NCBI GenBank assembly: GCA_963770835.1
Contig: CAVYRH010000002.1
Coordinates: forward strand, 96,001-160,000
DNA length: 64,000 bases
DNA from: an uncultured Pseudomonadota bacterium
Lineage (GTDB): Bacteria > Oederibacteriota > Muellerivitia > Muellerivitales > Muellerivitaceae
Direction: 5' to 3'
Of the stretch, positions 13,010 through 32,987 are shown piece after piece (within the stretch, counting starts at the first letter, position 1; each line of letters opens with the position of its first letter). The notes beneath the pieces are model-generated. The model was not told the origin of the DNA. It saw nothing but the letters and a program-made list of their open reading frames with translations, and searched no databases. Both the position numbers and the translations under genes were made by a program.

Positions 13010-13278
13010 TTCCCGCTTCTTTCCCAGCCCCTCAATAATTCACGAATGGCCTGGATGGCCTCGGATGCGTCCTCGCCCTCGGCCGAAAACTCCAGTACCG
13101 TACCATAAATGGCGCCGATGGTTAAGAGTTCCAAAAGGCTCTTGGCATTTACTGCCCTCAACCCGTTGGAAACACGAATGTTGCTTTTAAAACGGCAGGC
13201 CGTTTTGGCTAATTGGGCTCCCGCTCTCAAGTGCATCCCCAAGCGGTGAAGAATCGGAATTTTTTCAATGACACTCAT
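13006..13278 (-). CDS. HPr-family phosphocarrier protein
   Basis: 90 aa from the ATG at 13278. GMHLR is the His15-equivalent motif, VNAKSLLELL the Ser46-equivalent, plus AEGEDA. The stop overlaps the cysT start (ATGA). Confidence 0.85.
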   Translation of the reverse strand: MSVIEKIPILHRLGMHLRAGAQLAKTACRFKSNIRVSNGLRAVNAKSLLELLTIGAIYGTVLEFSAEGEDASEAIQAIRELLRGWERSGK

Positions 13279-13402
13279 ATGATTCCCTCGAACCTTTAAA
13301 AAAGGTTCACTATGGGTTAGGTGGATTTCCATGGATTCCTCGAACATCGGATCGTTTGAGGGGCCGGCTAAATCGACGCCCCTTCATTTCTCCGGTTTCA
13401 TT

Positions 13403-14426: not shown

Positions 14427-14439
14427 GATATCTCCTTGG

Positions 14440-15936
14440 TTAAAAGTTGGCCTGGGCCCGGACCGTGAAGACATCCTCCGGCAAAAGGCTGGCCAGCGCT
14501 TCGGCCACACCGGAGTACCTGGGCCCCCTCCACGAAATCCGTCTCTTCCCAGTCGAAGACCAGTTTGAAATGGGGGTTGAAAATCCAGTTCAGGCCCGCC
14601 CCGAAAGCCGTGGCTTGCTGGGCCGAATTGGTGGCCGCTAAGTTGGATGCCGCCGTCGCGCTGAAGGCGTTCGGGTCGATGCGTCAGTTGGTGCACGCGC
14701 ACCGCCACTTCCAAGGCGCCCCAATGGCCCTTGCGCAGGTCCAAATCCTTATCCGCGATGGCACCCTGGTAAGGAAGCCTTTCCGCCGATGACCCAGGAA
14801 GCCCGCCAACTGCCAGGCCTGGTTGGCCACATTGACGGCGTTCGCCTTGCTGGTGCCCACGTCCTGGGTCGACTGCACGTATTCCCCCAATAGCCCGAAG
14901 GGGCCGTTGGAGTAGTAGAGCCTGCGGGGAGCAATGGTAGAAATCGCCCTGGGGCGAAACGCCCGTGCGGTAGGCAAAGAACTGTTGCTGCCCCAGGGAA
15001 GTGACGAAGTAATTGGGAAAGGCGTTGGTGTTCCAGTTCACATTCCAGGACCAGTCTCCCCGAAATTCCGAACCCGAGGTCTTGCAGGAAGGAATCCTCT
15101 CCCTTGAAGAGGGTCAGGAAAAGCCTGCCCGAGAGTTCCTTGCCGTTGGTCAGGCTCTGGTCGTCCGCGTTATTGGGCGTGTAGTTGTCGGGCGTCCCGG
15201 CGGTGAGGGCCACTGCGTAATTGACGCCGTTCCAGGGGCTGCCCGTGGCCTCGGCGCCCAGGTCCCGGTTGGGGACCAGGTCCGTCGGCAGGGCCCTTTC
15301 CACGAAAAGGTTATCCGTGTCGTTTTGCAGCCTTTCCAGGCCGATCGGCACCTTGAATTTTCCCGCTTGGAATTGCAGGGCAGGGTCCGCCTTGATGAAG
15401 GCATAGGCGTCCTGGATGGCGTAGCCGGTGGACCCCAATTCGGCCTGGTAGCGGAACCCCACCAAGTGGTCGAAAATGGCGATCAGGTCCAGCCTCGTTT
15501 TGCGGTTCAGGAAGGTGCTGGTGGACTTACTGGTCGTGGCCCCGGCCGCGCCCTCCTCGGGTTCGTCGGTGCTTCCGATCGGCACATAGTCGAAATAGGA
15601 CGTACTGGGCTGGAAATAGCTCCGGTAATCCTCCTGGACATTGCCCCCGATCTTGAAAATCACGTCCCCGGACGGGTCCGAAAGGTCCAGGTAGTTATGC
15701 TCGGTGGTAAGCACCACCTCGCTTTTTTCCAGCTGGTTCAGGCGGTTGTTAAGCCCCTCCACGCCTGCGAAAGGCGTCAACGCCGGCGTGGGCTGCGCCT
15801 CGTCCCCCCCTGAGGGCGTCCCAGCCGCCGCAGTGGTTTTACCGCCCGTGGAATCCTGCGCCCAAGACCTTGCCGAACTAAGAATCCCAACCAAAACCAA
15901 GACAGCTAAAGCAAATACCGACTTTCGACTTTTCAT
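14440..15936 (-). CDS. OprO/OprP-family anion-selective porin (frameshifts in the C-terminal third)
   Basis: Signal peptide; DAY...GKFKVPIGLERLQ, FVERALPTDLVPNRDLG; C-terminal fragments include GPFGLLGEY, AWQ and GALEVAVR; lies directly upstream of sbp. Confidence 0.8.
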
Positions 15937-16001
15937 GACAAACCCCTTTTATTTTATTTACCCTTTTTGTATCGCGGAGGGTTTCCGCTCGGGGTCTTCG
16001 G

Positions 16002-16036
16002 AATAATCCGACCCCGCTTCTTCAGCGGGCCGGGAT
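16002..16036 (-). terminator. Expression-platform hairpin of riboswitch copy 3 (weak U tract)
   Basis: Minus-strand AUCCCGGCCCGCU-GAAGA-AGCGGGGUCGGAU followed by UAUU. Confidence 0.5.
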
Positions 16037-16053
16037 ATAAGATATCTCGAAGA

Positions 16054-16122
16054 CCGCTTTAGCGCCCTGTTTGGTTTCTTTCGAAACACCGGTCGGGGCA
16101 AGTTGGCAATTAAATCCCACCG
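16054..16122 (-). ncRNA. SAM-II/SAM-V-fold riboswitch-like aptamer, copy 3 (upstream of the porin)
   Basis: CGGUGGGAUUUAAUUGCCAACUUGCCCCGACCG-[GUUUCGAAAGAAAC hairpin]-CAAACAGGGCGCUAAAGCGG. P1, UUU, UUGC and GCUAAA occur in the order of the SAM-II core. Confidence 0.75.
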
Positions 16123-16170
16123 TAAAACTTTTAAACTCCGAACTTCTTACACCTCCCAAAATAATCTTGA

Positions 16171-16264
16171 ACCACCAAGGTCACCAAGAAAAGCAAAAAT
16201 TGAATATCGGATCTTCAGCATATAAGAATCTTTGCCTTTAGTCTTTCTTGGTGACCTTGGTGGT
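16171..16264. repeat. REP-like element with perfect 21-bp inverted arms
   Basis: accaccaaggtcaccaagaaa (16171-16191) / tttcttggtgaccttggtggt (16244-16264); related to 42176..42266. Confidence 0.8.
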
Positions 16265-16287
16265 GAAAAAAGTTTAGCTTTTGCCTT

Positions 16288-16956
16288 TTAATTCGAATGC
16301 ACCGTTTCCTTCGCCTGGCCCTTGTTCGGCTGGGGCGTCAAGCGCAGGTAAGGCCTCACCGCCTTGTAACCCTTCGGGAAACGTTCCTTCAGTTCCTTCT
16401 CGTCCTTCAAGGCCGGGACGATGACCACGTCATCCCCGTCCTTCCAATTCACCGGGGTAGCGACCTTGTAATTGTCCGTCAATTGCAAGGAATCGATGAC
16501 TCGCAGGATTTCGTTGAAATTGCGGCCCGTGCTGGCCGGGTAGGTGATGGTGGCGCGGACTTTCTTATCGCCATCGATGATGAAGACCGACCGGACGGTG
16601 GCGTTGGCCAGAGAGTTGGGATGGATCAGGTCGTACAGCAGCGAAACTTCGTGGTCGTGGTCCGCCAAAATCGGAAAATTCACATGGGTTTTCTGGGTCT
16701 CGTTGATGTCCGGAATCCAGCCCTTGTGGTTTTCCACCGTATCGACCGAAAGGGCGATCACCTTCACGCCCCTCTTCTCGAATTCGGGCTTCAACCGGGC
16801 CGTTTCACCCAATTCAGTGGTGCAAACGGGCGTGAAATCCGCGGGATGGGAAAACAAAACCACCCAGGACTTACCTGCCCATTCGTAAAAACGGATCTTC
16901 CCTTCGCTGGACTCCTGCGTGAAATCCGGCGCTACGTCTCCTAGTCTTAAAGCCAT
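16288..16956 (-). CDS. 1-Cys peroxiredoxin (Prx6 / LsfA-like)
   Basis: FSHPADFTPVCTTELG, YPASTGRNFNEILRVIDSLQLT and ATPVNW; one Cys only. Confidence 0.93.
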   Translation of the reverse strand: MALRLGDVAPDFTQESSEGKIRFYEWAGKSWVVLFSHPADFTPVCTTELGETARLKPEFEKRGVKVIALSVDTVENHKGWIPDINETQKTHVNFPILADHDHEVSLLYDLIHPNSLANATVRSVFIIDGDKKVRATITYPASTGRNFNEILRVIDSLQLTDNYKVATPVNWKDGDDVVIVPALKDEKELKERFPKGYKAVRPYLRLTPQPNKGQAKETVHSN

Positions 16957-19054: not shown

Positions 19055-19375
19055 CTACTTTTTATATTTCTTCAACAGTTCCTTGGCTGGAATCGCCTTG
19101 TTTTGACGTGTGGTGCGCTCGGCGATCGCCTCGATCTCCTTGGCTTCTTCAGGCGTCGGCTTGATGAAAGTCAGCTCCGCATGGTCGGCCACGGCGCGAT
19201 AGACGATGTCGGCGATCTTCTTGGCCAGGGGATGGTGGCCGAATTCCTCACTCAAAGCCTGGGCCACGGCATGGTCGATGAACTGGTTGATGCTTTTGTA
19301 ATGCAACTTGTTCTTCACCAGGCTTTCCAGCTTATGTTTCCCCATTCTCGGCCGGTAACTGATGACGCCTTCCAT
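19055..19375 (-). CDS. Putative antitoxin / small DNA-binding protein
   Basis: N-terminal beta-alpha-alpha-like pattern (VISYRP...KLESLVK...SINQFIDHAVAQAL). The C-terminus TPEEAKEIEAI...AIPAKELLKKY resembles antitoxin tails. Lies downstream of a RelE-like ORF. Confidence 0.5.
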   Translation of the reverse strand: MEGVISYRPRMGKHKLESLVKNKLHYKSINQFIDHAVAQALSEEFGHHPLAKKIADIVYRAVADHAELTFIKPTPEEAKEIEAIAERTTRQNKAIPAKELLKKYKK

Positions 19376-19436
19376 AAGAACCCCCGGGCCCCTGCTGGCG
19401 GGCACGGTTTAATTGTATGCCCGATGTATGCTTTTT

Positions 19437-19739
19437 TCAAGGAGGATGGGGGGCGGGGCTCTTGGGTCGAAAACGGGTGATCAGGACCCTCTCGACGGCC
19501 TGGCTTTTACCGTAATAGATCCTGCCTTGGATATCAAAGGGGATATGGTGGTCGGACTTGAAGACGTCCCCGCCCAGGCGGCGGTGGATATCCAGCCAGT
19601 CCTCGGGTGGAAAATGGACCAGGTCCTCCAGGTACCGGCGGGCCCAATCCCGCAAAATGGGCCTGGCCTGTTGTTGGAGATCCTTAAACTCCTTTTCCGC
19701 TTCGGGGCTGAACAGGATTTCCACTTCGGCGCGCTTCAT
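19437..19739 (-). CDS. Divergent RelE/ParE-like protein
   Basis: 100 aa; the N-terminus EILFSPEAEKEFKDL and the later RIYY..VLITRF segment follow the RelE pattern. Confidence 0.5.
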   Translation of the reverse strand: MKRAEVEILFSPEAEKEFKDLQQQARPILRDWARRYLEDLVHFPPEDWLDIHRRLGGDVFKSDHHIPFDIQGRIYYGKSQAVERVLITRFRPKSPAPHPP

Positions 19740-19902: not shown

Positions 19903-20604
19903 TTATTTGGTTCTGCAGGCTGTTTCGGCCATTTCTTCTTCGGCCATCTTCTTTCCGCAAGCCTCACAGGCGGGGTTGCGCTGGGGGACGATGGACCTTG
20001 CTTCCCTCTTCTGGATATCCACTTTCCAAAGCCGGAAAGGACCCCGGCCTTCGGCCAGCCGCAGGGCCTCATGGGCCTGGAGATAGCCGATGGCTTGCGA
20101 GAAGGAACCCAGGACCCCCGCTTCCTGGCAGGTGGGCATGGCAAAAGGCGGCGGTATTTGGGGGATAAGGCACCGCAGGCAGGCGGTTTTCCCCGGCAGC
20201 ACGGGCAATACTTGCCCCTCGAACTTGACCACCCCCGCGTGAACGTAAGGTTTCCCCAACTTGACGCACCAGTCGTTCAGGAAGAATTTTTTTTCGAGAC
20301 GGTCAAGGCCGTCAATCACAAGGTCATATTGGGAAAGGATTTTTTCCGCGTTGGAGGCGCCAAGCGCTTCCGGAATGAGGTTGGTGGCGGTCCGGGGATG
20401 GTGCTTTTTCAGGAAATCCGCGGCGGCCTCGGCCTTAGGCCTACCCAGGTCGCTTTCGGAGTAAAGGATCTGCCGGTGCAAGTTGGACAACTCGACTTTA
20501 TCGGGGTCCATGAGGCCGAGGGTTTCCACACCCGCTTCGGCCAGGACTAAAGAAGCGGGGCATCCCAAACCGCCCACCCCCACGATCAATATCTTTTTTT
20601 TCAT
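19903..20604 (-). CDS. ThiF/MoeB-family adenylyltransferase lacking the N-terminal RYSRQ segment
   Basis: GVGGLG, DPDKVELSNLHRQILY, DLVIDGLD, CLRC, PTCQEAGVLG and PACEAC; starts directly at the first beta strand. Confidence 0.9.
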   Translation of the reverse strand: MKKKILIVGVGGLGCPASLVLAEAGVETLGLMDPDKVELSNLHRQILYSESDLGRPKAEAAADFLKKHHPRTATNLIPEALGASNAEKILSQYDLVIDGLDRLEKKFFLNDWCVKLGKPYVHAGVVKFEGQVLPVLPGKTACLRCLIPQIPPPFAMPTCQEAGVLGSFSQAIGYLQAHEALRLAEGRGPFRLWKVDIQKREARSIVPQRNPACEACGKKMAEEEMAETACRTK

Positions 20605-20611
20605 AAATTCC

Positions 20612-20800
20612 TCACAGCAATCCGATGACCATCATCACGGCTCCACTAGCCATCAGGGAAAAAGAAACAACCAAGAGTATCAAGTAAGGTAACGGCGTGC
20701 CCTTATCGTTCTGGGCCTTATACAGGCCAAAAAGCTGGGAGAATTGGTAGATTAAAAAACCCAAAATAACCAGGCAAAGTCCCGCTAAAAAGTTAGCCAT
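20612..20800 (-). CDS. Small two-helix membrane protein
   Basis: 62 aa with two hydrophobic segments; 7 bp upstream of the MoeB-like gene. Confidence 0.6.
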   Translation of the reverse strand: MANFLAGLCLVILGFLIYQFSQLFGLYKAQNDKGTPLPYLILLVVSFSLMASGAVMMVIGLL

Positions 20801-20838
20801 TTAATATTTCCATACCTGTTTTTCCTTGGCTTTCCCCT

Positions 20839-22257
20839 TCAAGGGTCCGCCGTCTTTACGAGAACAAGCTTGTTGAGCGCCCTGCCATCCTTGGTATACA
20901 GGACCGTATATTGGCCTGTCGGCATTTCCCGCCCCGAATCATCCTTTCCATCCCACTCGACCCAATCATCCGGCTGGGCCACAACATGCTTTTCGAACAG
21001 ATTCCTCAAATGACTACCGGAAGCATCCACCACTTCCAGGCGGTAAACCCCGGGCCCATCCGCGAAGCTAATGTAAATATTAGCAGGCTGATTTTCGAAA
21101 ACAATGGTCTGGGCTTGGTTGGCGACGGGGGCGGGGGTCACCCCGGAGGTTGGAGTCGGCGTTGATGCCTTGGCCGCCACCGGCGGGGCCGCTTTCTCAA
21201 CCAGCTCCGCCCGGCTTGAAACCCCGAATTTAGGAATGGGAGTGGGCGTAGGTTTCTTGAATTTTCTCCGTATTTGGAAAGTCCTGGCCGGTACAGGAGA
21301 AATCGTAGGGGTCGGCGAAGGCCGAACTACCCCGATTGGAACAGAAGTAAAGGTGGGACTAGCTGTTGGTGGAAGAACTGGAGTCCAGGCGGGAGCGGGA
21401 CTTGGGATGGTAGTAGCGGTCGGCGTAAGGATCGGCTTCCAAGTATAAACCGGCTTTGGGATGGGCGTATCAATCGGAAAAGAAGTAAAAGTCGGCGTAG
21501 TCAAAACGGGTTGAGTTTTGGGAGTGGGTTTAGGCAACATCGCCCGAACTTCGGCCCTCGGTTTCTCTTGAGCCCAATTCTTTTCAGGCGCACAAAGCGG
21601 GTTGGGCCCGATGTTCAGGTAAAATTTCTGGCGGTAAAGGTGACGTTCACCCGGGTATTCGGCTTTTGGCGTCATGCCCGAAGCCGATAGAAATTGGATT
21701 TCCTGCCGGTTTTCCGGATCTGTAAGAAGCGCCACACCCGGAACCGTTGTGCCGATGGCATAAGGCGGGGGCCAATTCACGTCGTTAAAAGACATTCGAT
21801 GCCAATCTTCAGGTTCCCCCATCTCCCGGCCCGGAAGGTAATAGGACTTATGGTCCGTCCTATCGTTGCTGGATAAAGTTCGCTCCGTACCGTCCGAAAA
21901 ACGCAGTTTAAGAACATAGGCGATGCCGATTTGCCCCCTCAACGGGGGTTGGCTGTTGAAGGCATTGGCGTTTTCGATCGCCAAGATATTTTCATTTTGA
22001 AAATAGCAAAGATGTTTCGGGAGGCATTGGATGGTCTGGAACCCTTTAGATTCGGGTGTCGATGGCTGGCTTTCCCTTATCGGAATTCCATTGAGCCAAA
22101 TATCAGCCCAACCATCGACTGAAATGTAAAAGGTAGCCGACTTCAAATAAGGGGGGGCAACTTGGGCAATAGCCGCCGGGGAAAATCCCAGACCAACCGG
22201 TAGAAGAGTGAACAAAAAGGCTCTTTTCCTGAAAAAGCTCCAGTTGGGCGGGGTCAT
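20839..22257 (-). CDS. Secreted protein with Pro/Thr-rich linker and C-terminal FlgD-like Ig domain
   Basis: Signal peptide, beta-rich N-domain, TPT/PTP repeats and a C-terminal WDGKDDSGREMPTGQY motif. Confidence 0.75.
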   Translation of the reverse strand: MTPPNWSFFRKRAFLFTLLPVGLGFSPAAIAQVAPPYLKSATFYISVDGWADIWLNGIPIRESQPSTPESKGFQTIQCLPKHLCYFQNENILAIENANAFNSQPPLRGQIGIAYVLKLRFSDGTERTLSSNDRTDHKSYYLPGREMGEPEDWHRMSFNDVNWPPPYAIGTTVPGVALLTDPENRQEIQFLSASGMTPKAEYPGERHLYRQKFYLNIGPNPLCAPEKNWAQEKPRAEVRAMLPKPTPKTQPVLTTPTFTSFPIDTPIPKPVYTWKPILTPTATTIPSPAPAWTPVLPPTASPTFTSVPIGVVRPSPTPTISPVPARTFQIRRKFKKPTPTPIPKFGVSSRAELVEKAAPPVAAKASTPTPTSGVTPAPVANQAQTIVFENQPANIYISFADGPGVYRLEVVDASGSHLRNLFEKHVVAQPDDWVEWDGKDDSGREMPTGQYTVLYTKDGRALNKLVLVKTADP

Positions 22258-22328
22258 GCCCTTATATATAACCCATTTTCCCCCGCTGTGGATGCTCCCG
22301 GTTTTTTAAGCGCGGGACGTTTCCGGTA

Positions 22329-23279
22329 TCAAGACCCCTGCAAGCGGCGCTGTTGGACGAAAAACGTCACCTCGGCCCCGAACAAGAGGATGGTCCAGGA
22401 AAGGTAGAACCAGACGAGGATCACGGGAATCATCCATAAAGCCCCGTAAACATGGCTTCGCTCAAAGACTTTCAACGCGTACAAATTCATCCCCCACCGG
22501 GCCGTTTGCAGCAGTACGGTCGCCACCAACCCGGTTAAGGCCGCCGCCCGGGGGTCCACCCGGGCGTTGGGTATCCAGACATAGATCCAAAAACAAGCGG
22601 CCCACAAAACCACAAAAGGAAGGGCGGTGGCGAAAAGCCAATGGTGGAAGGATGGGTGAAAAAGGTTCAAGCTTCCCGCCCAGCCTTTCACGGTTAGGAG
22701 CAATATCCCCAACAAGGGCAGGCCAATGAAAAAGGTCGCGTGCCGTACCATTTGGGCCATAATCCGGCGGGGTTTTTCCACCCCCCAAAGGTAATTGAAA
22801 GAATGCTCCACATCCCGCAGCAAAAGAAAAACAATCAAAAGAAAACCCAAAAAACCCACGAGGCCCACCTTCTGGGAAAAAAACGCGAACTTTCTCATGG
22901 AGATGCGGATTTGCTGTTTGCCCACTTGGTTCAACTGTTGGAGGTTTTGCGGTTCGGAAGGATCCAGTAACGAATTGTTGGATTGGGTCTGGACGGGATA
23001 AATAGCGTCGACGATCTGGTCGAGAAGCTGTTCCCTTTTTTGGGCGAAGGCGTCATTGGAGAGAACCGCCATGATGATGGCCAAAGCCGGCACCAGGGCC
23101 AGGATGGTTTTGAAGGCAAGGGAGCTGGCATAAAGGCGCTTGTGGCCCCGGCTGGGTTGGTTTCCATTGTTCAATACTTTGCCGCTGGCCCAAACGATGG
23201 CTTTCAGGTCCTCCCAAATCGCGATCGGACGTGGAGGCTGTTTTTGAAGCCGGTGATGACCGTGAAAATAATTGGCCAA
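22329..23279 (-). CDS. YihY/BrkB family membrane protein
   Basis: ASSLAFKTILALVP, VEHSFNYLW and YGAL...LVWFYLSWTILLFGAE. Confidence 0.88.
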   Translation of the reverse strand: MANYFHGHHRLQKQPPRPIAIWEDLKAIVWASGKVLNNGNQPSRGHKRLYASSLAFKTILALVPALAIIMAVLSNDAFAQKREQLLDQIVDAIYPVQTQSNNSLLDPSEPQNLQQLNQVGKQQIRISMRKFAFFSQKVGLVGFLGFLLIVFLLLRDVEHSFNYLWGVEKPRRIMAQMVRHATFFIGLPLLGILLLTVKGWAGSLNLFHPSFHHWLFATALPFVVLWAACFWIYVWIPNARVDPRAAALTGLVATVLLQTARWGMNLYALKVFERSHVYGALWMIPVILVWFYLSWTILLFGAEVTFFVQQRRLQGS

Positions 23280-23374
23280 GGATTTCCTTCACGAAAGGTA
23301 GAATGGCTCCATTGTAAGCGAAACCGGCTATGGGAATGTCCTGATTTACCCATCCCTGTGGTAAGGATTAAATT

Positions 23375-23986
23375 TTGGTAAACAAGAAAATACTGCCCTT
23401 AAAATATCAAACCCCGGCTGAATGGGGCGGGCAGGTTCTTCGGCAGCCCCTGGCCCTCCTTTCGGACCAGGCCTATTTGGAAAAGAAAGCCGCCAATAAC
23501 GCCCTGGAATTCCTGAACCTTTGGCCCGGCGCCAAGGCCCCTGCCCATTGGCTTTCTTCCGTGGCCGCCATCGCAAGCGATGAAACCGCCCACCTGAAAA
23601 TGGTTTTACGGCTTTTGGAAAAGAAGGGGGGCGCGCTTGAGGGGTCGCACAAAAACCCTTACGCGGTGGATTTGCACCGGTTGGTCCGGCGCGGCAAGGG
23701 AAAGCAGGATCTGGCGGACCGGCTTCTCATTTCCGCCCTCATTGAGGCACGGTCCTGCGAAAGATTTGAGAGATTGGTGGAAGCCTGCGGCGACGCCGAA
23801 CTATCGAAATTTTACGCGGGTTTGATCGAGTCCGAGAACGGTCATTACCGGCTTTTCGTGGAATTGGCCAAAAAGGTCCTGCCCCCGCGCGAAGCCGAAA
23901 CCCGGTGGGTCCAGTTGGTGGGACAAGAAGCCGAAATTATCCAGGCTCAGCCGCCCGGCCCAAGAATCCACAGTGGGATGGCCTAG
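23375..23986 (+). CDS. miaE: tRNA-(ms2io6A) hydroxylase, ferritin-like
   Basis: EKKAA, DETAH, DRLLISALIEARSCERF, SENGH and RIHS. Confidence 0.85.
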   Translation: MVNKKILPLKYQTPAEWGGQVLRQPLALLSDQAYLEKKAANNALEFLNLWPGAKAPAHWLSSVAAIASDETAHLKMVLRLLEKKGGALEGSHKNPYAVDLHRLVRRGKGKQDLADRLLISALIEARSCERFERLVEACGDAELSKFYAGLIESENGHYRLFVELAKKVLPPREAETRWVQLVGQEAEIIQAQPPGPRIHSGMA

Positions 23987-24010
23987 TTCCAGGGCTTTTT
24001 CCCAGAAGAC

Positions 24011-24652
24011 TTACTTCGACGCCTCTTCCAGGGCTTTGACAAAGGTTTCAACGCTTTGGGCCCCTGAAACCGCGAACTTATGGTTAAAGACGAAAAAAGG
24101 CACGCCGTTGACCCCCAAGTCATAGGCCTTTTCTTCCGCTTCGCGGACCTCTTCCTCGCCTTCACGTCCGGCTAGGAGTTTTTCCACCTTTGTCTTGTCC
24201 AATCCGGCCGCACCCGCCAATTCCGTTAAGGCCTTTTTATCCCCGAGGTCCTTTCCCTCGGTGAAATAGGCCTTAAAAAAGACGTTTTGGGCCTCATTTC
24301 CCTTTCCTTCTTTCTCGGCCAGCCATAGCACCCGATGCGCGTTAAAGGTATTGGGCGTCCTTTCAATGGAGTCGAACTGGTAATCAATTCCCACTTCCTT
24401 TCCAAGGGCCGTCAGCCGGGCGTGAGCCTCGTCCAGCACATGCGTTCCCCCGAATTTAGCCGCCAGGTGGGCTTTGTGATCCAGGCCTCCCTCGGGGGTG
24501 GCCGGATTCAACTCGTAAGGCAAAAACCGCACTTGGGCCTGTGCGCTTTTACCCCCAACCTCCAAGGCCGCCTCCAAGCGTTTTTTCCCCAGGTAACACC
24601 AAGGGCAAATAACGTCGGAATAAATTTCGATTTTAAGAGGCTCCATCTTCAC
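24011..24652 (-). CDS. DsbA/FrnE family oxidoreductase
   Basis: SDVICPWCYLG, NTFNAHR, GVPFF and SGAQ. Confidence 0.92.
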   Translation of the reverse strand: MKMEPLKIEIYSDVICPWCYLGKKRLEAALEVGGKSAQAQVRFLPYELNPATPEGGLDHKAHLAAKFGGTHVLDEAHARLTALGKEVGIDYQFDSIERTPNTFNAHRVLWLAEKEGKGNEAQNVFFKAYFTEGKDLGDKKALTELAGAAGLDKTKVEKLLAGREGEEEVREAEEKAYDLGVNGVPFFVFNHKFAVSGAQSVETFVKALEEASK

Positions 24653-24849
24653 TCCTTGATATCCAGTTTTTTAAAATAAGCATTTGATAGCCGCATGACA
24701 AGTTAAACACATCAAAATCAATCCCCCCAACTCAAAAACACGGACTTTTAATTGGCAACCGATTCACCATTTTAAATTTTTAAACTTCTGGTCGAACCAA
24801 GTTGGTTTAATTCACGGGGGCAAGACAGGCGGGGTAAAGATTTCTTCGC

Positions 24850-25410
24850 AAAAACTACGAGTAGTGAGTGGTAAAAATTCTAAATTAACCCTAAGTTAAA
24901 TTTATGAACAGCCACGCGATCATAAAGCAATTCGGGTCGAATGTCCGAAAACTAAGGTTGAAAAGGCGCTGGACCCAGGAACATCTGGCCCAACACGCGG
25001 GGTTGACCCCCAACTACATCGGTTTTGTCGAAAGAGGGGAAAGGAACATCACCCTCAAAAACGCCGTCAAAATCGCAAGGGGCCTCAACTACCCGGTCCA
25101 CAAGTTATTCGACGGAATTTTACAGTCGATAAAGTAGCGCTTTGACGGTTCTCCCGCCCCGGTGCCCGGATGGATCATTTTTTCATCCCCTTGTAAACAA
25201 CCCTTTCAACGGGCCAGTTTTTTTCCCGAAGGCATCGCCGGAATGCCTGGGCCGAATCCTCCGCTTTGACTTCATAAATTTCTTCCATCCCCATGAGTTG
25301 GAAAATAAATATCTGTGGGTCTTCTGGCACTTTTCCTCCCAGGATTTTTCACAAGGGGGGTTAATGTGCATGAACCGGAACTCATTGACCACTCACTACT
25401 CGTAGTTTTT
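24850..25410. repeat. Perfect 23-bp inverted repeats flanking the XRE gene
   Basis: aaaaactacgagtagtgagtggt (24850-24872) is the exact reverse complement of accactcactactcgtagttttt (25388-25410); it contains the palindrome ACTAC-GA-GTAGT. Confidence 0.9.
24904..25137 (+). CDS. XRE-family HTH regulator (controller/C-protein-like)
   Basis: FGSNVRKLR...TQEHLA...YIGFVERGERNITL. Confidence 0.88.
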   Translation: MNSHAIIKQFGSNVRKLRLKRRWTQEHLAQHAGLTPNYIGFVERGERNITLKNAVKIARGLNYPVHKLFDGILQSIK

Positions 25411-25493
25411 AACGGGTAATACCGAATAATGCCGACGGGGAAACAGGAATGAATCCGAGTTATTTTTAGGTCTTCAACCATTATGATGGCGCC

Positions 25494-25898
25494 ATGAAGG
25501 TGATAAAACTCCAGACTGACCGGCGGGAACAAATCCTGGACATCACAGGGCCTATCCAGGATTTCGTTGATAAAAACGGCTCTTCATCAGGCTTATTGGC
25601 GGTTTTTTGCCCCCACACCACCGCGGCCGTCTCCATCAATGAAAACGCCGATCCGGACGTGAAAAGGGATATTCTTTACCATCTCAAGAAAACCATTCCC
25701 CAATCCCCGGATTTCAAGCATTTTGAGGACAATGCGGACGCCCACATCAAATCAGTATTAACGGGCTTTTCGTTGGTTTTAATCGTGGAAAAAGGACGAA
25801 TCCAGCTGGGCCGTTGGCAGGGAATCTATTTTTGCGAGTTCGACGGGCCTAAAGAGCGGGAAATATGGCTTAAATGGATTCCGGATACGGGCGCTTAA
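25494..25898 (+). CDS. YjbQ/UPF0047 family protein
   Basis: HTTAAVSINENADPDV, NADAHIKS and LGRWQGIYFCEFDGP. Confidence 0.92.
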   Translation: MKVIKLQTDRREQILDITGPIQDFVDKNGSSSGLLAVFCPHTTAAVSINENADPDVKRDILYHLKKTIPQSPDFKHFEDNADAHIKSVLTGFSLVLIVEKGRIQLGRWQGIYFCEFDGPKEREIWLKWIPDTGA

Positions 25899-25913
25899 AA
25901 AACTGAAATCTCC

Positions 25914-26873
25914 TTAGACGGCATCCGAATGCCCGTCCCGCTCGAATTCCTCTTCCAGGCTGAAATATCTCTCACCCATGTCACAGCAAATGGTGGCCAC
26001 GCGGGCGTCGGGGCCCAACTTCTTGGCGATTTTAACGGCGGCCGCCACATTGGCCCCGGAAGAAATTCCCAAAAGCAGCCCTTCTTCGCGAGCCAAGCGC
26101 TTGGTCATGCGGTAGGCTTCCTGATCCTCAACGGTGATGATTTCATCCACAACCGACCGGTTGAAGACCGACGGCACGAAGCCGGCGCCGATTCCCTGGA
26201 TCCGGTGGGTTCCGGCTTTTCCGCCCGAAATCACCGCCGAGGCCGCCGGTTCCACGCCCACGATTTTGATTTTGGGGTTTTTCGCCTTGAAGTATTCCCC
26301 CACTCCCGTGATGGTCCCACCCGTCCCGATACCCGCCACGAAAGCATCCAGCCTCCCCTGGGTATCCTTGTCAATCTCGGGCGCCGTCGTCTTTTTATGG
26401 GCTTCCGGATTGGCCCGGTTGGCGAATTGCTCCGGCATGAAATACTCCGGGTGTTGTTCCTTGATTTCCTTGGCCTTGCGGACAGCTTCAGTCATTAACC
26501 CTTTCGCCGAGGTTAAAACCAATTCCGCCCCATAAGCCTTTAATAGCACCCGCCGTTCCTGGCTCATATCCTCCGGCATGACCAGGATGAGCTTATAGCC
26601 CCTCTGGGCACAGACCAGGGCAAGGCCGATGCCCGTATTGCCGCTGGTGGGTTCCACCAGGGTGCCACCGGGTTTTAAGATTCCCCGCTGTTCCGCGCCC
26701 TCGATCATGGCCAATGCGATCCGGTCCTTGACGCTGCCACCCGGATTGTAAAACTCCAGTTTGCAAAGGATCTGGGCCCCACCCTTTTCCGGGATGCGCT
26801 GGAGCCTCAAAAGGGGCGTCTGACCGATGAGGTGCGTGATATTGGTGGCCAAGGGGTAACGGTTATAAGTCAT
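25914..26873 (-). CDS. cysK: Cysteine synthase A
   Basis: IGQTPL, KLEFYNPGGSVKDRIA, EPTSGNTGIGL, GTGGT, HRIQGIGAG, GISSGAN and ERYFS; likely start MTYN at 26873. Confidence 0.93.
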   Translation of the reverse strand: MTYNRYPLATNITHLIGQTPLLRLQRIPEKGGAQILCKLEFYNPGGSVKDRIALAMIEGAEQRGILKPGGTLVEPTSGNTGIGLALVCAQRGYKLILVMPEDMSQERRVLLKAYGAELVLTSAKGLMTEAVRKAKEIKEQHPEYFMPEQFANRANPEAHKKTTAPEIDKDTQGRLDAFVAGIGTGGTITGVGEYFKAKNPKIKIVGVEPAASAVISGGKAGTHRIQGIGAGFVPSVFNRSVVDEIITVEDQEAYRMTKRLAREEGLLLGISSGANVAAAVKIAKKLGPDARVATICCDMGERYFSLEEEFERDGHSDAV

Positions 26874-27564
26874 GGGGTGACGGGAGCCCTTCTTCCAACA
26901 AGCGGGCCGGGCATTTATAAGTCGGCTGGACTTCATGGTGGAATGAACCTCCCATTTCCAGGGAAGTTATCCATACCTTCCCTTCGAGGGGTGAATTCCC
27001 GTTCAAAATCCACTGGAGCGCCTCGGAAGCGGCCATCGCCCCGATCATGCGTTGGAGGGAGGCCGTTCCCTTCGTGAAAGCTTTGGGGTTCATGACTTCA
27101 AAACATTCCAAACAGGGGCACTGCCCCCCTTCGATGGCGAACCGTCAGAAGGGCGAATCCGCTGCCCGCGGGCCAAGCAAATAAAGCGGGCCGGGCGTGG
27201 TGCCGGAGCCAACGGCTGAGACGCCGCCGGATTTCCTTGTTATCGTTTAAAACCAGAACGGCCGAAGTCTCGGGCAACTGTTCAAAATCCTCAGGCAAAA
27301 CGTCCACTTGAAGGCCGGGAAATTGGGAAGTCAGGGAAAAGGAATCGAAGTGCCCCAAGGGGATAACGAAAATCTTGGAAAGGCCGACCGAGGCCAGGGC
27401 AACGGCGGCGGATTGGAGGGCAACTCCCTCTCCCACCAATAAGGCCGAGGCTTTCGACCATTTCTTTTGGCCTTCCGGACCAACGGAAGGGAGGATGGCC
27501 TGGCGTGAAAAGCGTTCATCGGATAACGGCCCCGGGCTTGCGGGGGGCGCGCGGAGGATGGCAT
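26863..27564 (-). CDS. Degenerate ThiF/MoeB-like protein (frameshifts near 27545 and in the G run at ~27125)
   Basis: Reconstructed: ERFSRQAILPSVGPEGQKKW..ALLVGEGVAL...QCPCLECF...IGAMAASEALQWIL...PTYKCP. It keeps RxSRQ/G.EGQ and one CxxC but lacks GxGxxG, SNLxRQ and the catalytic-loop Cys. Confidence 0.7.
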
Positions 27565-27569: not shown

Positions 27570-27814
27570 TTACTCGACGATGTCTTTGACGATCGGATTA
27601 ACATCGATGCCCTGTTTGGAAAGATTTCCAGGGCTTTCCTGATTTCTTTTTCCTCGCCCACGATTTCCATTTGGACATACCCGAAGCCCTTGGTGATGGA
27701 AGCCCGGCGGATATTAACGGTCATATCATGTTTTTTGATCATGCTGGACAGGACCGGTTCGGTGACGAGTTCGGTGGGATAATCCAATTCGACGAGTTTT
27801 TTAATAGCGGTCAC
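27570..27814 (-). CDS. Stand-alone NIL-domain protein (one indel at ~27625)
   Basis: LDYPTELVTEPVL...VNIRRASI...GYVQMEIVGEE. The corrected end KQGIDVNPIVKDIVE* stops at 27570. Confidence 0.8.
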
Positions 27815-27850: not shown

Positions 27851-28134
27851 TTAAATTTGAATTCCGCCCGCGATGGCCGGCACGATGGAAACCTGGTCCC
27901 CGCCTTGACCGCGGTGGCTTCTCCTTGCAGGAAACGGATGTCTTCTTCGTTCAGATAGATATTCACGAACCGGCGGATTTTGCCGTTTTCATCGCAAAGC
28001 CGATCTTTCAGACCATTGTAATTTTTGCCCAGGTCGTTGATGAGATCGGACATGGTAGTGCCTTCGGCGTTCACTTCCGCTTGGTTGTTGGTGAGGTTTC
28101 GTAACGGGGTCGGGATGAGCACTTTCACTGCCAT
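27851..28134 (-). CDS. MoaD/ThiS/CysO-type ubiquitin-like sulfur carrier (one indel in the G run at ~27900)
   Basis: VLIPTPLR...RRFVNIYLNEEDIRFL. The corrected C-terminus is GDQVSIVPAIAGG-IQI*; GGAGG RBS. Confidence 0.88.
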
Positions 28135-28296: not shown

Positions 28297-30345
28297 TCAT
28301 TTCAACAAGGGGAATTCCGTCACCCTTAAGCGCGTGGAACCATAAGGCACGAGGAGCAAAGATTCCATTGGTTCGGCGCTTTCAACGGGGCTCTGGGGTG
28401 GTGGTTCCGCAGCGCCCTGCGTAAAAGCCCAATCGTTCAAACGCTTGCCGTTAACAGTCAGCTTGAGGGGGGCACCCTCCAAGGTGAAGGGGTCTCCCTT
28501 TAAACCTATGTTTTGAAGCGTCAATGACTTTTCAGGGTCTCCTGGATTAAGCACCAAAGCATAGTTCCAGGGCGTTTGTGGAATGACAAAGTAGTCGTAT
28601 TTGGGTTCCCCCTTCGGCTGATAGGGGAATGGCTGGGCGGGTTTCCACGTTTCTTGAAGTCCCAGGCTGTAAACCAAGGGGCCCCTTTCCACGCTGACCG
28701 AATCGCGAAAACCCCTTCGGACCTTAAACGACATGGGCAGTTGAAGTTGAAGGGTGTCCCCTTCTTTCCATTGGCGAACAATTTTTTGAAAGGTTCCGGA
28801 AGCCATCCTTTGTTTTGTTCCATCCGGCAAGGTGAGGGTCGCTTGATCGCACCATTGCGGCACCCGCAAATAAAGAGGGAACTCAATGGGTTTGAGAGTT
28901 GATACTTTAAAAGTCAACTCCTCGCTGAACGGATAATCAGTTGTTAATTCGACCCTTACGGGTTGACCCGAGACCTCGGCTTCAACCACCGAAGGGGCAT
29001 AAATCACGGCAGCCAAGCCTCCGTCCGGGGTCGTCATCCATAAATGGGAGGTGAATTTGGGCCAGCCTTGGTGAAAATTGGCAGTGCAACAACCGTATTG
29101 GGGTTCCAGGCCAAACAGATTAGCCGTTCCACGGTTGGTGGTATAAACAGGCCGCGGAACGTAAACACAGGCCACCTGATTGGCCTGTTCATCATACTGG
29201 TGCTGCCAATAATTCGCCGTGCAGGCGGCTGGCAAGGCATTGAAGGCTATTTTTTCAAGGCGGTCCGCGTCCTCCACGTTCCCCAAAACGGACAAATCCG
29301 TTTCGAGTGAAAACATCGTTTCAACGATGGCGCAAAGTTCGGTCCCCTGGGAAGGGCTTTTTCCAGCCAGGCATTCATCCGCGCTGAAAAGGCCGTTGGC
29401 TTCGCCATGATAACGGTACAGTTCCTCGAGGGCCTCGGAAGAGAGCTTTTTATATTTTTCCTCGCCGGTCAGGCGGAAAAGGAGCGCCGGAACCTTCAAA
29501 CCCATGGCGTTGTTCACCCCGTGTCCCGGCCAATTCCAACCCGGGGACTTTTCCTTAATGGGCAAATTGGAAAAATGTTTTGGCCAGTTATAACCCTGGT
29601 TCGCCGCCTTGACGGCCAATTCTAGGAGCCAGGGTTCCCGGGTACGGTCATAGAGCCAGAAAACGCTTACAAGCAGGTCGCCCCAGCGGAAATAATTCCA
29701 GTCGAAAAGCGGCCTTTGGCTCAATTGGTTGTTGAGGCTCCAAAGGTCTTTTTCCATGGCCGAGATGACTCGTGGATCCCCTGTGGCCTCTTCATATTGG
29801 GCCAGAACTTTCAGGATGATGAACTGCGGCCAGGGATCCCGGGTCGCAGGTGGCTCGGCATTGGGAGGGGCGCCACTGGGGGGAGGGCTTTGCTCCGGGC
29901 CAAGCCAGCCATCCGGTAACTGATGCCCCAGGATATAGTCCATCCACCGCCTGGACTTTTGTTGAAGTTTTTGATCGTCGGTGAGATAAGCCAGTGGCAC
30001 GAAACCATCCAGCCAATAGGGGGCCCGCTCCCAGCCTTCCGCCTTTCCTCCAATCCATCCACTGTTTTTGACATCCGGCCAAAACTCATCCAAATGCCCG
30101 GAAAGACCACCCGCCTGGAGCTGAAGCTGTTCTAAGAGCCACCCTTTGGGCTTCACGTGCCCCAAAGGCAATGGTTGGAAGGCCGTCGGCTCTAAACCCA
30201 TCGGCCGGTTTTCTTTTCTCTCTTGTTGGCCCCGGAGGTAAATAGCCCAGGTAAACCCCATCAAAACCACGACTATCAGGGCGATCAAAGATTTTGTTGG
30301 AAAATTTTTCTTGGATCTTGGTGGTTCCAGGCTTGTTTCCGTCAT
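28297..30345 (-). CDS. GH127-like (beta-L-arabinofuranosidase family) glycoside hydrolase, membrane-anchored
   Basis: VKPKGWL, WERAPYWLDG, HGVN, GTELCAIVE, LEKIAFNALP, YGCCTANFHQGWPK, TDYPF and RGPLVY. Confidence 0.85.
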   Translation of the reverse strand: MTETSLEPPRSKKNFPTKSLIALIVVVLMGFTWAIYLRGQQERKENRPMGLEPTAFQPLPLGHVKPKGWLLEQLQLQAGGLSGHLDEFWPDVKNSGWIGGKAEGWERAPYWLDGFVPLAYLTDDQKLQQKSRRWMDYILGHQLPDGWLGPEQSPPPSGAPPNAEPPATRDPWPQFIILKVLAQYEEATGDPRVISAMEKDLWSLNNQLSQRPLFDWNYFRWGDLLVSVFWLYDRTREPWLLELAVKAANQGYNWPKHFSNLPIKEKSPGWNWPGHGVNNAMGLKVPALLFRLTGEEKYKKLSSEALEELYRYHGEANGLFSADECLAGKSPSQGTELCAIVETMFSLETDLSVLGNVEDADRLEKIAFNALPAACTANYWQHQYDEQANQVACVYVPRPVYTTNRGTANLFGLEPQYGCCTANFHQGWPKFTSHLWMTTPDGGLAAVIYAPSVVEAEVSGQPVRVELTTDYPFSEELTFKVSTLKPIEFPLYLRVPQWCDQATLTLPDGTKQRMASGTFQKIVRQWKEGDTLQLQLPMSFKVRRGFRDSVSVERGPLVYSLGLQETWKPAQPFPYQPKGEPKYDYFVIPQTPWNYALVLNPGDPEKSLTLQNIGLKGDPFTLEGAPLKLTVNGKRLNDWAFTQGAAEPPPQSPVESAEPMESLLLVPYGSTRLRVTEFPLLK

Positions 30346-30687
30346 GATTGACTATTCTATTCGAAAGAACGAAAAAACTTGACGGAACTCTTGCGCGAAA
30401 GATTGAAAGAAGATGTTCATTAAACTTCACCGATGAAGAATGAAAGGAGTTTGGTAAACGATTCTTTCTCAATTAAATATCCGGCCGGTAACAATTCCAA
30501 TGAACTTTCTTTTAAATTAAGCGATAAAGAGATATGGTTGTTAGTCGGATTTTTTTATTTCAACCGATCACTATGAATGTTCTTGAACGAGCTCAATGCT
30601 GAAAAAATTTGCCTAACCGCCTTTTGTTTAACTACTAATCCTTCCTTGGTTTTTTCAATTCAAAAGTAACCCTATAAGAGAGTCTCC

Positions 30688-31029
30688 ATGCCGTCCTATA
30701 TTCAACACTCGAACTCAGACCACCAATTCCTAAAAAAAGTCGGCCGGAAGATCAATGAGGTCCGGTTGCAAATGGGTTACACCCAATCCCAGTTGGCCGA
30801 ACAGGCTGGAGTCTCCATCCAAATGGTCCAATACTGGGAGTCGGGGCGAAACATCACTTTGAGGACCCTTTATAACCTCGCTTATCAGCTCGGATGCCCC
30901 GTCCGCAGTTTCTTCAAAGAACCCCGGAATATGACTGCTCAACGGGGAAGGCCCCGGACTACCGGTGGAAAAACAAAAAAGCCCAAATCCCGCGAGGAAA
31001 ACAAGCCACGCCGAATTCCGCAGTCTTAA
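30688..31029 (+). CDS. XRE-family HTH regulator with basic C-terminal tail (RGRPR)
   Basis: VGRKINEVR...TQSQLAE...VQYWESGRNITL. Confidence 0.85.
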   Translation: MPSYIQHSNSDHQFLKKVGRKINEVRLQMGYTQSQLAEQAGVSIQMVQYWESGRNITLRTLYNLAYQLGCPVRSFFKEPRNMTAQRGRPRTTGGKTKKPKSREENKPRRIPQS

Positions 31030-31100
31030 ATCACAAATAAGCTGTCCGTAATCAAAAAATCCTTATGAGTCAGCCATCCATCGTTTCCCGGTCTTTGGTT

Positions 31101-31547
31101 TTAAGGTTTGGAAGGGGTATGGGAGGGGCGAAGCTTGTACCCCCAGGTTCGGTAGGCCATCCACCCCAGGTTCACCAACGAAAGAAGGATGGCGATAACC
31201 GGCATTAGGCCCGTTGCGGGACCTTTGGAAGCCCAAGGACTGTCACTCCTGATTTTAGAAATGAACTTGCGCAAATCGGGATTGTCCGGATGAAGCTTGA
31301 GACTTTGTTCCATCGCCAACACCGCTTCGGTGCGGTTGGAATTTTGGTAATAGGCCTCTCCAAGGAATTGGTAGGCCTGCCAATAATCGGGGCGTTCATC
31401 CACCGCCGCCTTGAAATATTGGACGGCCTTCTCATAATCCCGACCCTTGAACAAATCCATCCCTGCGTTGTAATAGTCTTCCGGCGCAATGGCCCAAACC
31501 CAGACCGGAGCCAAAACGACGAGGGCGCTTAATATTATTTTTTTCAT
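31101..31547 (-). CDS. TPR protein with signal peptide and C-terminal membrane anchor
   Basis: Two TPR-like repeats (YNAGMDLF...AVQYFKAAV..PDY, AYQFLGEAYY...SLKLHPDN). Confidence 0.8.
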   Translation of the reverse strand: MKKIILSALVVLAPVWVWAIAPEDYYNAGMDLFKGRDYEKAVQYFKAAVDERPDYWQAYQFLGEAYYQNSNRTEAVLAMEQSLKLHPDNPDLRKFISKIRSDSPWASKGPATGLMPVIAILLSLVNLGWMAYRTWGYKLRPSHTPSKP

Positions 31548-31551: not shown

Positions 31552-32783
31552 TTATGCGGGAATCATCTGGGTAGCTTCAAAAGCCGCCAAATTAGGCTGG
31601 ATCACTTTGACTTCCCGCAGGTGACCGGTCACCGCTTCCTGGGTTTTGAGGCCCGTTCCCGTGATATAGGCCACTGTCACGGCATCAGGGTCAAGTGCCC
31701 CCGATTCAGCCAGTTTCTTCAGGCAGCCGATAGTGACGCCCCCGGCCGTTTCGGCGAAGATACCCTCCGTGCGGGCCAAAAGCTTGATACCTTCGACGAT
31801 TTCATCATCCGTCACCATTTCGGCCCCGCCATTGGAATCGGCGATGGTCCTCAAGGCATAAAAACCGTCGGCGGGATTACCGATGGCCAGGGACTTGGCG
31901 ATAGTATTGGGTTTCACGGGCCGGAAGGTATCGGTCTTGGCCTTATAAGCGGTCGTCACAGGGGAACAACCAGCGGCCTGGGCGCCGAATACCCTCATAG
32001 GTTTCTTCTCGATCAGTCCGACCTTGACGAATTCCTGGGTTCCCTTCCAAATCTTGGTCAAAAGCGACCCGGAGGCCACCGGTACCACCACCTGGTCCGG
32101 CGCTTTCCAACCCAATTGTTCGGCCACCTCAAAGGCCAGGGTCTTGGAACCTTCGGCGTAATAAGGCCGCATGTTGATGTTCACGAAAGCCCATTTGTAT
32201 TTTCCGGCGATCTCGCTGCAAAGCCGGTTCACATCGTCGTAATTGCCGTTCACCCCGATCAGGTTGGGGTCATAGATGAGCGAAGCCGGTCACCTTGCTG
32301 GGTTCCAGGTTGGAGGGGATGAAAACAAAGCGTTTCATGCCGCCCCTGGCGCCATAGGCCGAAACGGCGTTGGCCAGATTGCCCGTCGAGGCGCAGGCCA
32401 GGGTGTCAAAACCCAGTTCCAGGGCCCGGGTGGAGGCCACCGCCACCACCCGATCCTTGAAGGAATGGGTGGGGTTGGCGCAGTCATTTTTGATGTAGAG
32501 GTTGGAAAGCCCCAGCTCTTCGCCCAAGCCGTTCGGCCCGGATGAGGGGGGTATAGCCTTCCTCCAGGGTGTTGTACGTGTCCCCTTCCACCGGCAGGAA
32601 CTCGCGGTAACGCCAAATGTTCAGGGGCCGGGAGGCGATCTTCTCCCGGGAAATGTCCTTCTTGATCTTGTCGTAATCGTAGGCCGCTTCCAGGGGCCCA
32701 AAGCAAAACTCGCAGACGTATTTGGCGGCTTTTTCGTATTCCTGGCCGCATTCACGGCATTTCAAGGCTTTCACATAACTCAT
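31552..32783 (-). CDS. Threonine-synthase paralog with N-terminal Zn ribbon (two frameshifts), under a SAM-I riboswitch
   Basis: Fragments: CREC..CEFCFGPL, NPTHSFKDR, ASTGNLANA, NYDDVNRLC, NMRPYYAEGSKT, SLAIGNPADG, ETAGGV, TGTGLKT. Confidence 0.88.
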
Positions 32784-32871: not shown

Positions 32872-32987
32872 CTCTCATCTCACCCCGGTTTTAAAGACCG
32901 AAGCAGGAATTGGCACCTAACAGTTCCTGATGGAACCTGGTTGCCGTGGCATCGCAGGGCCTGTCCCTCCGCCACTCTGGATAAGAG
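32872..32987 (-). ncRNA. SAM-I (S-box) riboswitch
   Basis: CUCUUAUCCAGAG-UGGCGGAGGGACAGGCCCUGCGAUGCCA-CGGCAACC...GGUGCCAAUUCCUGC...GAUGAGAG, the canonical S-box. Confidence 0.95.

Follow-up and report, generated by a model that had tools for sequence, protein, structure and literature searches.

The closest described relatives of the system presented here are the Escherichia coli MoeB-MoaD and ThiF-ThiS systems (PDB 1JW9, 1ZUD, 1ZFN), in which the adenylating enzyme is a one-gene homodimer with two active sites, and the canonical activating enzymes (E1s) SAE1-SAE2 (Aos1-Uba2) and NAE1-UBA3, in which, according to the accessible text of PMC12355090, an inactive and an active adenylation subunit come from separate genes. 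In the available parts of the respective papers, in ThiF, Arg11 from the opposite monomer is reported to bind the gamma-phosphate (PMC12596934), Arg9 of the bacterial E1 BilD to be contributed by its inactive domain (PMC10557695), and the R21A variant of SAE to be unable to form the adenylate, the arginine being essential in the SUMO (small ubiquitin-like modifier) E1 (PMC6681703). The 2023 structure paper on BilD states, as far as its accessible text goes, that all known bacterial E1-like proteins except the single-chain BilD are homodimers (PMC10557695). Our literature search found no bacterial two-gene E1; the survey of the E1-like superfamily by Burroughs et al. (2009) and subscription papers may already mention such pairs. 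Here we describe two genes from a 64,000-nucleotide stretch of DNA (positions 96,001 to 160,000 of contig CAVYRH010000002.1, hereafter the window) of an uncultured Pseudomonadota bacterium. Gene A (19903..20604, minus strand) encodes an N-terminally shortened adenylyltransferase of the MoeB/ThiF family, predicted to be an active subunit, and gene B (26870..27564, minus strand) a catalytically dead ThiF-fold protein with an RxSRQ arginine, predicted to be an inactive subunit. The best reading of the evidence is that the pair is a two-gene heterodimeric E1 that would adenylate a MetO/CysO-type carrier for homocysteine or cysteine synthesis under the control of an S-adenosylmethionine (SAM) riboswitch. 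From sequence analysis and modeling we estimate the probability that A and B form a functional heterodimer at roughly 0.8. A preliminary description of the locus had started from the premise that the arginine acts in trans in homodimeric MoeB and comes from the inactive subunit in Aos1/Uba2 and APPBP1/Uba3, and the three papers cited above back it.

Protein A (Pfam ThiF, 218.9 bits) is the product of a clean open reading frame (ORF) of 233 amino acids (aa), with GAGG directly 5' of its ATG and the N-terminus MKKKILIVG. The Pfam match covers positions 21-237 of the ThiF model, and the alignment to E. coli MoeB (1jw9), which is the top sequence match (E-value 1.1e-35), begins at MoeB residue 32, i.e. 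compared to MoeB, A is without residues 1-31. The alignment and the residue table indicate that A retains the equivalents of MoeB G41, D62, S69/N70, R73, K86, D130, both CxxC motifs and C187, and the GxGGxG P-loop and SNLxRQ are present in the window's copy. Among homologues from the order of the source genome (32 genomes; G, L and P labels below denote genomes, loci and proteins, respectively), D33, S40, N41, R44 and K57 occur in all 113 A rows, D101 and the crossover-loop cysteine C159 in 112 of them, and two CxxC zinc motifs are present, while RYxRQ upstream of the P-loop was found in none of the 107 A homologues with a matched P-loop. A does not reach the curated cut-offs for MoeB, ThiF or MoeZ (best NCBIfam score 207 bits vs 449; none of 20 families passed). 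The ratio of nonsynonymous to synonymous substitution rates (dN/dS) is 0.09-0.17 in three of four pairs of A genes, the remaining pair being saturated. If the start of A were mis-called, the missing segment would have to be encoded upstream, where a 62-aa hydrophobic ORF unrelated to ThiF (20612..20800, minus strand; no Pfam match; a homologue lies upstream of A in 9 relatives) stops 7 bp from A and leaves it no space. A six-frame scan of the genome revealed no loose N-terminal fragment for A, and the motif was found only in B and in two full-length MoeB copies. The earlier statements that A has the full catalytic set without the N-terminal RYSRQ segment, and that there is no room upstream for a lost fragment, are thus borne out, the former by the ORF, the Pfam match, the MoeB alignment and the residue table, the latter by the ORF ending 7 bp away and the six-frame scan.

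In protein B the N-terminal segment reads RFSRQ, and the B profile places RxSRQ on MoeB R14. GEGVAL replaces the P-loop, a deletion runs across SNLxRQ, and the loop cysteine and the Mg-aspartate are absent, so that compared to MoeB, B is without the P-loop, SNLxRQ, D130 and C187 equivalents; translation and profile here agree with the preliminary description, which had listed the kept RFSRQ segment, the degenerate P-loop and the missing SNLxRQ and loop cysteine. In the order homologues the arginine is found in 92 of 96 rows, the remaining 4 being gaps, and SNLxRQ in 0 of 97 matches. Among the 96 rows 8 columns are invariant, and C153, C156, H212 and C220, which never vary, probably constitute a zinc site. 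The best-kept residues of B are those of the N-terminal segment and the dimer helix, parts which A lacks or must pack against. B falls mostly under family cut-offs, is frequently labelled hypothetical and represents an annotation gap.

The B gene is split over three frames in the window and evolves fast (its homologues are 27-88% identical to the copy from genome G001), which could mean that B is a decaying duplicate or a frameshift artefact and that the short N-terminus of A reflects a wrong start. An intact 231-aa version of B exists in a protein collection (P0026), intact frames are found in relatives, and contigs assembled from public DNA runs differ from the window by single bases at 27134 and 27541 (three of three runs) and at 26889 (one of the two runs with depth there). 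Given the intact P0026 and the single-base differences in the public contigs where the frames break, the frameshifts in B are assembly errors; the preliminary description had proposed to correct the indels from raw reads, and the breaks are absent from the assembled contigs of the three runs. Further indels relative to the public contigs lie in the carrier gene near 27897 and in the NIL gene near 27622. Judging from the frames, P0026 and the public contigs, B most likely ends at 26870, with its stop overlapping the start of cysK, and not at 26863 as given previously. For B, all 7 pairs gave dN/dS values of 0.09-0.29, most of these pairs being close to saturated at synonymous sites, and B is under purifying selection. 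The predicted models of the A and B orthologues from G001 each have a predicted local distance difference test score (pLDDT) of 90.8. The decay or artefact explanation is largely refuted by the intact frames, the dN/dS values and the public contigs, and we give it practically no credence; the possibility that the degenerate ThiF is an unconserved pseudogene, named beforehand as fatal to the heterodimer, falls with it, given also the invariant columns. The single RNA run covers 160 bases, all inside cysK, and is uninformative on the expression of B.

The distribution of the two genes was analyzed with A-type calls at E <=3.8e-100 (next-best match 6.3e-72). A-type genes occur in 28 of the 32 order genomes and in none of the 67 other genomes of the phylum searched, B in 29, both together in 28 and A alone in none, counts that come from non-independent kin and incomplete assemblies; they confirm the co-occurrence anticipated in the preliminary description. 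B stands alone in a single genome (G016, 63% complete), and neither gene was found in G014 (96% complete), G020 (80%) and G019 (97%); G019 has no A and no carrier, and carries a remnant of B without the arginine segment beside greA (L039 291-893). Restriction to the 18 genomes at least 90% complete leaves 16 with both genes and 2 with neither. A and B lie on one contig within 22 kb in 20 of the 28 genomes; they are adjacent in G009, and G025, from the other family, shows the run thrC-like gene, carrier, NIL, B, cysK, A, followed by cysD/cysN-like genes. Of the 32 genomes 27 contain the carrier; the exceptions are the three genomes with neither A nor B, and G024 and G009, which have retained both. 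G024 has lost the carrier and MoeZ and kept A, B (on separate contigs) and thiS-thiG, and its sister G014 has lost A, B and the carrier and kept MoeZ beside thiS-thiG. From this comparison and the order-wide pattern it follows that the A/B pair is kept or lost as a unit.

Elsewhere in its assembly, on contigs other than that of the window, the source genome encodes two more MoeB copies of full length, which the otherwise accurate preliminary account of the locus did not mention, just as it passed over the NIL gene between the carrier and B. The first, a MoeZ of 386 aa, ends in a rhodanese-like part, and the second (286 aa, L002 1378-2238) is 72% identical to MoeZ and has neither the rhodanese domain nor the loop cysteine nor the D127 equivalent. 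As an intact MoeZ is present in most order relatives as well, A and B might each partner an intact MoeZ or MoeB encoded elsewhere instead of each other. We consider this very improbable: 5 of the 28 genomes that carry the pair yielded no intact MoeB, including G002 (98% complete) and G024 (93%), G014 retains MoeZ and yet has lost both A and B, and in other phyla the two genes are adjacent (see below).

The fold comparison of the B model from G001 reported ThiF (Foldseek E-value 8e-13) and MoeB (Z-score 23.1, root mean square deviation 2.6, 209 residues aligned) as the top matches, followed by MccB, Uba4, UBA3, NAE1 (Z-score 19.8), SAE1 (18.5) and BilD (15.8); on this basis B is predicted to have the E1 adenylation-domain fold, and A and B each correspond to a single domain of about 230 aa. 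The complex of A, B and adenosine triphosphate (ATP), modeled for the G001 pair, obtained a score of 0.93 compared to 0.00 for the best of 3 controls; 116 of 157 solved complexes reached the mark used, as did 2 of 215 mismatched pairs, counts which are only roughly applicable here. The runs share at least 94% of contacts, and B as partner has a pLDDT of at least 85. The modeled interface comprises residues 19-24 of B (the RYSRQ segment), residues 39-40 and 42-44 of A (the SNLHR loop) and the two central helices. The A:B model, one of the checks outlined in the preliminary description, places the RYSRQ segment of B against the SNLHR loop of A, with a complex score that possibly derives from likeness to MoeB. 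In the dimer helix of A, Q170 is found in 112 and Y/F174 in 104 of the 113 rows, opposite small residues of B, in the order only. Such a knob-into-hole asymmetry of the dimer helices was considered as general evidence and dropped, as A-type proteins elsewhere have Gly at position 170 in 25 of 29 cases.

Beyond this family, a profile search against 1.84 billion representatives provided 162 further rows that were examined (P0099-P0260), of which 74 have the N-terminal motif and no matched SNLxRQ, some of them being intact variants. A motif scan of species genomes yielded at least 120 loci, 80 of them with flanks. The sorting by motif was corrected by reading the rows (L077, L188, L193 and L195-L199 are intact), and the arginine shown for the A-type rows of L010, L082 and L084 is an alignment artefact of over-long ORF starts. 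The 80 flanked loci contain 34 B-type and 46 intact genes. An N-truncated catalytic copy adjoins 29 of the 34 B-type genes vs 0 of the 46 intact ones (with L077 moved to the intact set by hand), and the other 5 B-type genomes each contain an N-truncated ThiF, elsewhere in 4 cases and cut at the contig end of the locus in 1. The lineages with the pair include Candidatus Binatia, Magnetococcales and Myxococcota (among them Myxococcus eversor, Archangium gephyra and Citreicoccus inhibens). The genes of M. eversor are arranged as A, tusA, carrier, B, JAB, adenosine 5'-phosphosulfate kinase, and the B-type proteins of Magnetococcales (L082, L084, L092, L126) possess a C-terminal TusA fusion, confirmed by Pfam for L084. 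A and B are neighbors in 51 of 71 Myxococcales genomes (established from the sequence in 46 and judged by coordinates and scores in 5); of the others, 2 have one partner at a contig end, and 18 have neither at the thresholds used. The myxobacterium G136 (L200) contains a second A/B-like pair, whose A copy is itself without an intact P-loop, SNLxRQ and loop cysteine. When metagenomes were scanned with P0099, a distantly B-like protein, two loci were returned, one an intact MoeB and one a short match.

In Nitrospirota/Nitrospinota, 10 of the 80 loci (L060, L061, L074, L075, L088, L089, L093, L103, L119, L125) show the operon cysK, moeB, thrC-like, carrier, NIL, moeB, in which both moeB copies are intact and belong to separate groups of the tree. 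In quick trees all 45 A-type rows are split from 61 intact rows with a support of 98 (Shimodaira-Hasegawa-like approximate likelihood ratio test), and all 30 B-type rows from 47 intact rows with a support of 99; these trees are unrooted and their long branches meet, and for the B tree near-duplicates, short B rows and 3 intact rows of great length had been removed. They leave room for a single origin of the A/B pair. The Nitrospirota operon as its direct ancestor was considered and found unsupported, both copies grouping among intact proteins and not with A or B; these copies would rather represent a parallel, unsplit state. In Elusimicrobiota (L058 5701-6780, L108 4603-5673) the same operon contains a 357-360 aa protein, which in L058 looks like an in-frame fusion of a carrier with an intact MoeB.

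The reciprocal residue pattern, which holds without exception among the homologues of the order, co-occurrence, selection, fold, riboswitch and carrier tail are observed; binding, catalysis, substrate, sulfur donor and dependence on the arginine or on stability are what we infer, as follows. A and B would form one asymmetric dimer of the MoeB type with a single active site. A would bind ATP, Mg and the Gly-Gly at the C-terminus of the carrier and adenylate the latter, while B would take the place of the second protomer, giving the N-terminal helices, with the arginine equivalent to MoeB R14, and the central dimer helix. The main substrate would be the carrier encoded in the operon, first trimmed to Gly-Gly by a JAMM protease. 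A separate sulfurtransferase, for which TusA is a candidate in other lineages, would then convert the adenylate to a thiocarboxylate, the sulfur of which may pass to a SAM-controlled MetM-like enzyme to give homocysteine or to a CysK-like enzyme to give cysteine.

The weak point of this scheme is the role of the arginine. According to the accessible text of PMC13139853, the arginine finger is dispensable for both MoeB and ThiF, E. coli TcdA has none, and in the yeast Tcd1-Tcd2 heterodimer the R59A substitution in Tcd1 cuts product by only 26%; because of the first and the last of these reports, A might work without B. The same text describes Tcd1, the inactive subunit, as required for the solubility and activity of Tcd1-Tcd2, and the chances that A needs B for its arginine or for the dimer scaffold are about even. 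Several further observations tell against a heterodimer, or against its being obligate. The listed contact pairs of the complex model do not name the B arginine against ATP, and as the MoeB dimer is solved, the complex may pass because it resembles that dimer. Separate contigs carry A and B in 8 of the 28 genomes, A lies 6 kb from the operon in the source genome, which has the two other MoeB copies besides, and the counts within the order are subject to the limits given above. The loci from other phyla were chosen by a motif favoring B-like N-termini. The Magnetococcales genome G101 has a second N-truncated ThiF (L209 4964-5761) with no B in the 10 kb fetched, which could draw on the one B in trans or could contradict the scheme. 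Finally, R102 of A is invariant in the order (113/113), a site at which all 61 intact copies have Asn, and could replace the lost arginine in cis.

It is conceivable that A is a self-sufficient homodimer which requires no arginine in trans, and that B is a pseudoenzyme inherited along with it that has another task in the pathway, e.g. to hold the carrier, to dock TusA or NIL, or to tune A via an optional heterodimer. The dispensable finger of MoeB and ThiF, its absence from TcdA and the order-specific R102 would suit such an A, and the TusA fusion in Magnetococcales and the invariant C, C, H, C set such a B. Three observations speak against this: B conserves best the very N-terminal segment and dimer helix that A lacks or must pack against, A occurs alone in 0 of the 32 order genomes, and the A-type proteins outside the order are all without R102 (Gly in 22, Asn in 6 and Thr in 1 of 29) and still accompany B. 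We regard this alternative as unlikely, if clearly less so than the use of MoeZ as partner, and prefer the functional heterodimer. As to the obligate heterodimer of the preliminary description, co-occurrence, adjacency elsewhere, selection on B and the A:B model argue for a heterodimer, but that it should be obligate since B supplies the arginine is doubtful in view of the non-essential finger of MoeB and ThiF.

The genes around B point to sulfur amino acid synthesis. Upstream of B on the minus strand lie a stand-alone NIL-domain protein (27570..27814; Pfam NIL, 41.5 bits; 81-83 aa in most relatives) and a sulfur carrier of the MoaD/ThiS family and MetO/CysO type (27851..28134; Pfam ThiS, 42 bits), whose GG plus short tail is found in the next frame; all 25 carriers examined have a tail of 1-7 residues after GG. 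A CysK-like cysteine synthase, the start of which overlaps the inferred stop of B, is encoded downstream (25914..26873, minus strand; Pfam PALP, 285 bits), and its G001 orthologue passes the TIGR01139 cysK model (444 bits vs a cut-off of 351). Further upstream, a paralogue of threonine synthase (ThrC), probably a MetM-type homocysteine synthase (31552..32783, minus strand), is recognizable from PALP pieces over three frames and is intact in relatives (409-442 aa, upstream of the carrier). It is preceded by a SAM-I riboswitch (32872..32987, minus strand; Rfam RF00162, 84.4 bits vs a gathering threshold of 44.4). A single JAB (Prok-JAB) gene occurs in the source genome, next to a CysM-like gene and outside the contig of the window (L169 555-1887), and no ThiS-family gene was found on the stretch of that contig with these two genes. 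In the papers citing the work on it, in their available parts (10.1101/2024.10.14.618325, PMC12172450), the MetM/MetO/Mec/MoeZ route leads from O-phosphohomoserine to homocysteine. With the ThrC paralogue beside the carrier, the SAM riboswitch, the tailed carrier and the JAB protease, the operon appears to match a pathway of this type. A role in molybdopterin synthesis is unlikely in the source genome because MoaE was not found there (one genome, 96% complete). The earlier assignment of the carrier at 27851..28134 as the substrate may hold in the sense of a main substrate, but not as an exclusive tie: A and B persist in G024, where this carrier is missing, and G002, a genome that yielded no intact MoeB, possesses three ThiS-family carriers, of which one is next to thiG and another next to moeA and moaE.

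The remaining genes of the region include, at 39015-42172 (minus strand), hom, an amino-acid kinase gene (ask) and, between these two, another ThrC-like gene (39705-40790), which is 36% identical to the G001 orthologue of the ThrC paralogue; together they probably represent the true threonine pathway. On the other side, 6-12 kb beyond A, are sulfate-uptake and cysD/cysN-like genes, the stretch 7623-16956 (minus strand) encoding the latter together with ABC (ATP-binding cassette) transporter parts, a solute-binding protein, an OprO/P porin and a 1-Cys peroxiredoxin, several of them frameshifted. Two small ORFs of 100 and 116 aa downstream of A (19055-19739, minus strand; no Pfam match; also in G002) have an arrangement that we take to be reminiscent of a toxin-antitoxin pair. 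Between the ThrC paralogue and the carrier an insert that is missing in many relatives (28297-31547) contains a GH127 glycosidase, a tetratricopeptide repeat protein and one further ORF, presumably helix-turn-helix-like.

Compared to the known systems, A shares its catalytic residues with MoeB and ThiF, and MoeB is a fold match of B, but here two genes replace one and a single active site is predicted instead of two. The sequence pattern, with inactive and active adenylation domains on separate genes, is like that of SAE and NAE. Unlike these, A and B are bare domains of about 230 residues with no cysteine half-domains and no ubiquitin-fold domain, B is structurally nearer to MoeB than to NAE1 or SAE1, and the carrier is by its context a sulfur carrier; no E2 was found among the annotated genes of the neighborhood, E2 families not having been searched genome-wide. 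BilD (BilABCD; PDB 8TYZ), like the pair as predicted here, is a bacterial E1 with one active site and an arginine from the inactive side, according to the available part of PMC10557695, but it is a single chain that includes a helical Cys domain and acts together with an E2 in defence against phages, whereas the pair consists of two genes placed in sulfur amino acid metabolism. As proposed for A and B, Tcd1-Tcd2 is a ThiF-family heterodimer of inactive and active paralogues, with a dispensable arginine finger from the inactive one, but it is eukaryotic and acts on tRNA, and a loss of the Tcd2 N-terminus is not described in the accessible text of PMC13139853. The MetM/MetO/Mec/MoeZ system of Streptomyces albulus (Hasebe et al. 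2024, as summarized in the available parts of the citing papers) has a ThrC-like enzyme beside a carrier, a SAM riboswitch and a Mec-dependent carrier; its activator is one MoeZ, in contrast to the A/B pair, in which neither A nor B has a rhodanese domain, and to the accompanying NIL and CysK, a likeness drawn from description and not from sequence. Altogether, the A/B pair resembles the inactive-plus-active arrangement of canonical E1s, yet it is not a canonical E1 and is a variant of the MoeB/ThiF kind.

A stronger version, in which the pairs of the order, Myxococcota, Binatia and Magnetococcales constitute an old and strictly obligate two-gene E1 family of single origin, with an arginine as essential as in the SUMO E1, a dead subunit that acts as sulfur-donor adaptor, and a pair that serves every Gly-Gly carrier where there is no intact MoeB, is in our opinion doubtful. 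If true, this family would be a free-standing bacterial case of the step from homodimer to heterodimer that eukaryotic E1s have taken. A two-gene active/inactive E1 would supply an architecture missing in bacteria. It would be a clean example of duplicates that have undergone reciprocal loss, the operon persisting unsplit, with two copies, in Nitrospirota. Cultured strains of Myxococcus and Archangium carry the pair, so that it would be genetically accessible in cultured myxobacteria, and it makes testable what the trans arginine, essential in the SUMO E1 and reported dispensable in MoeB and ThiF, and the inactive subunit do.

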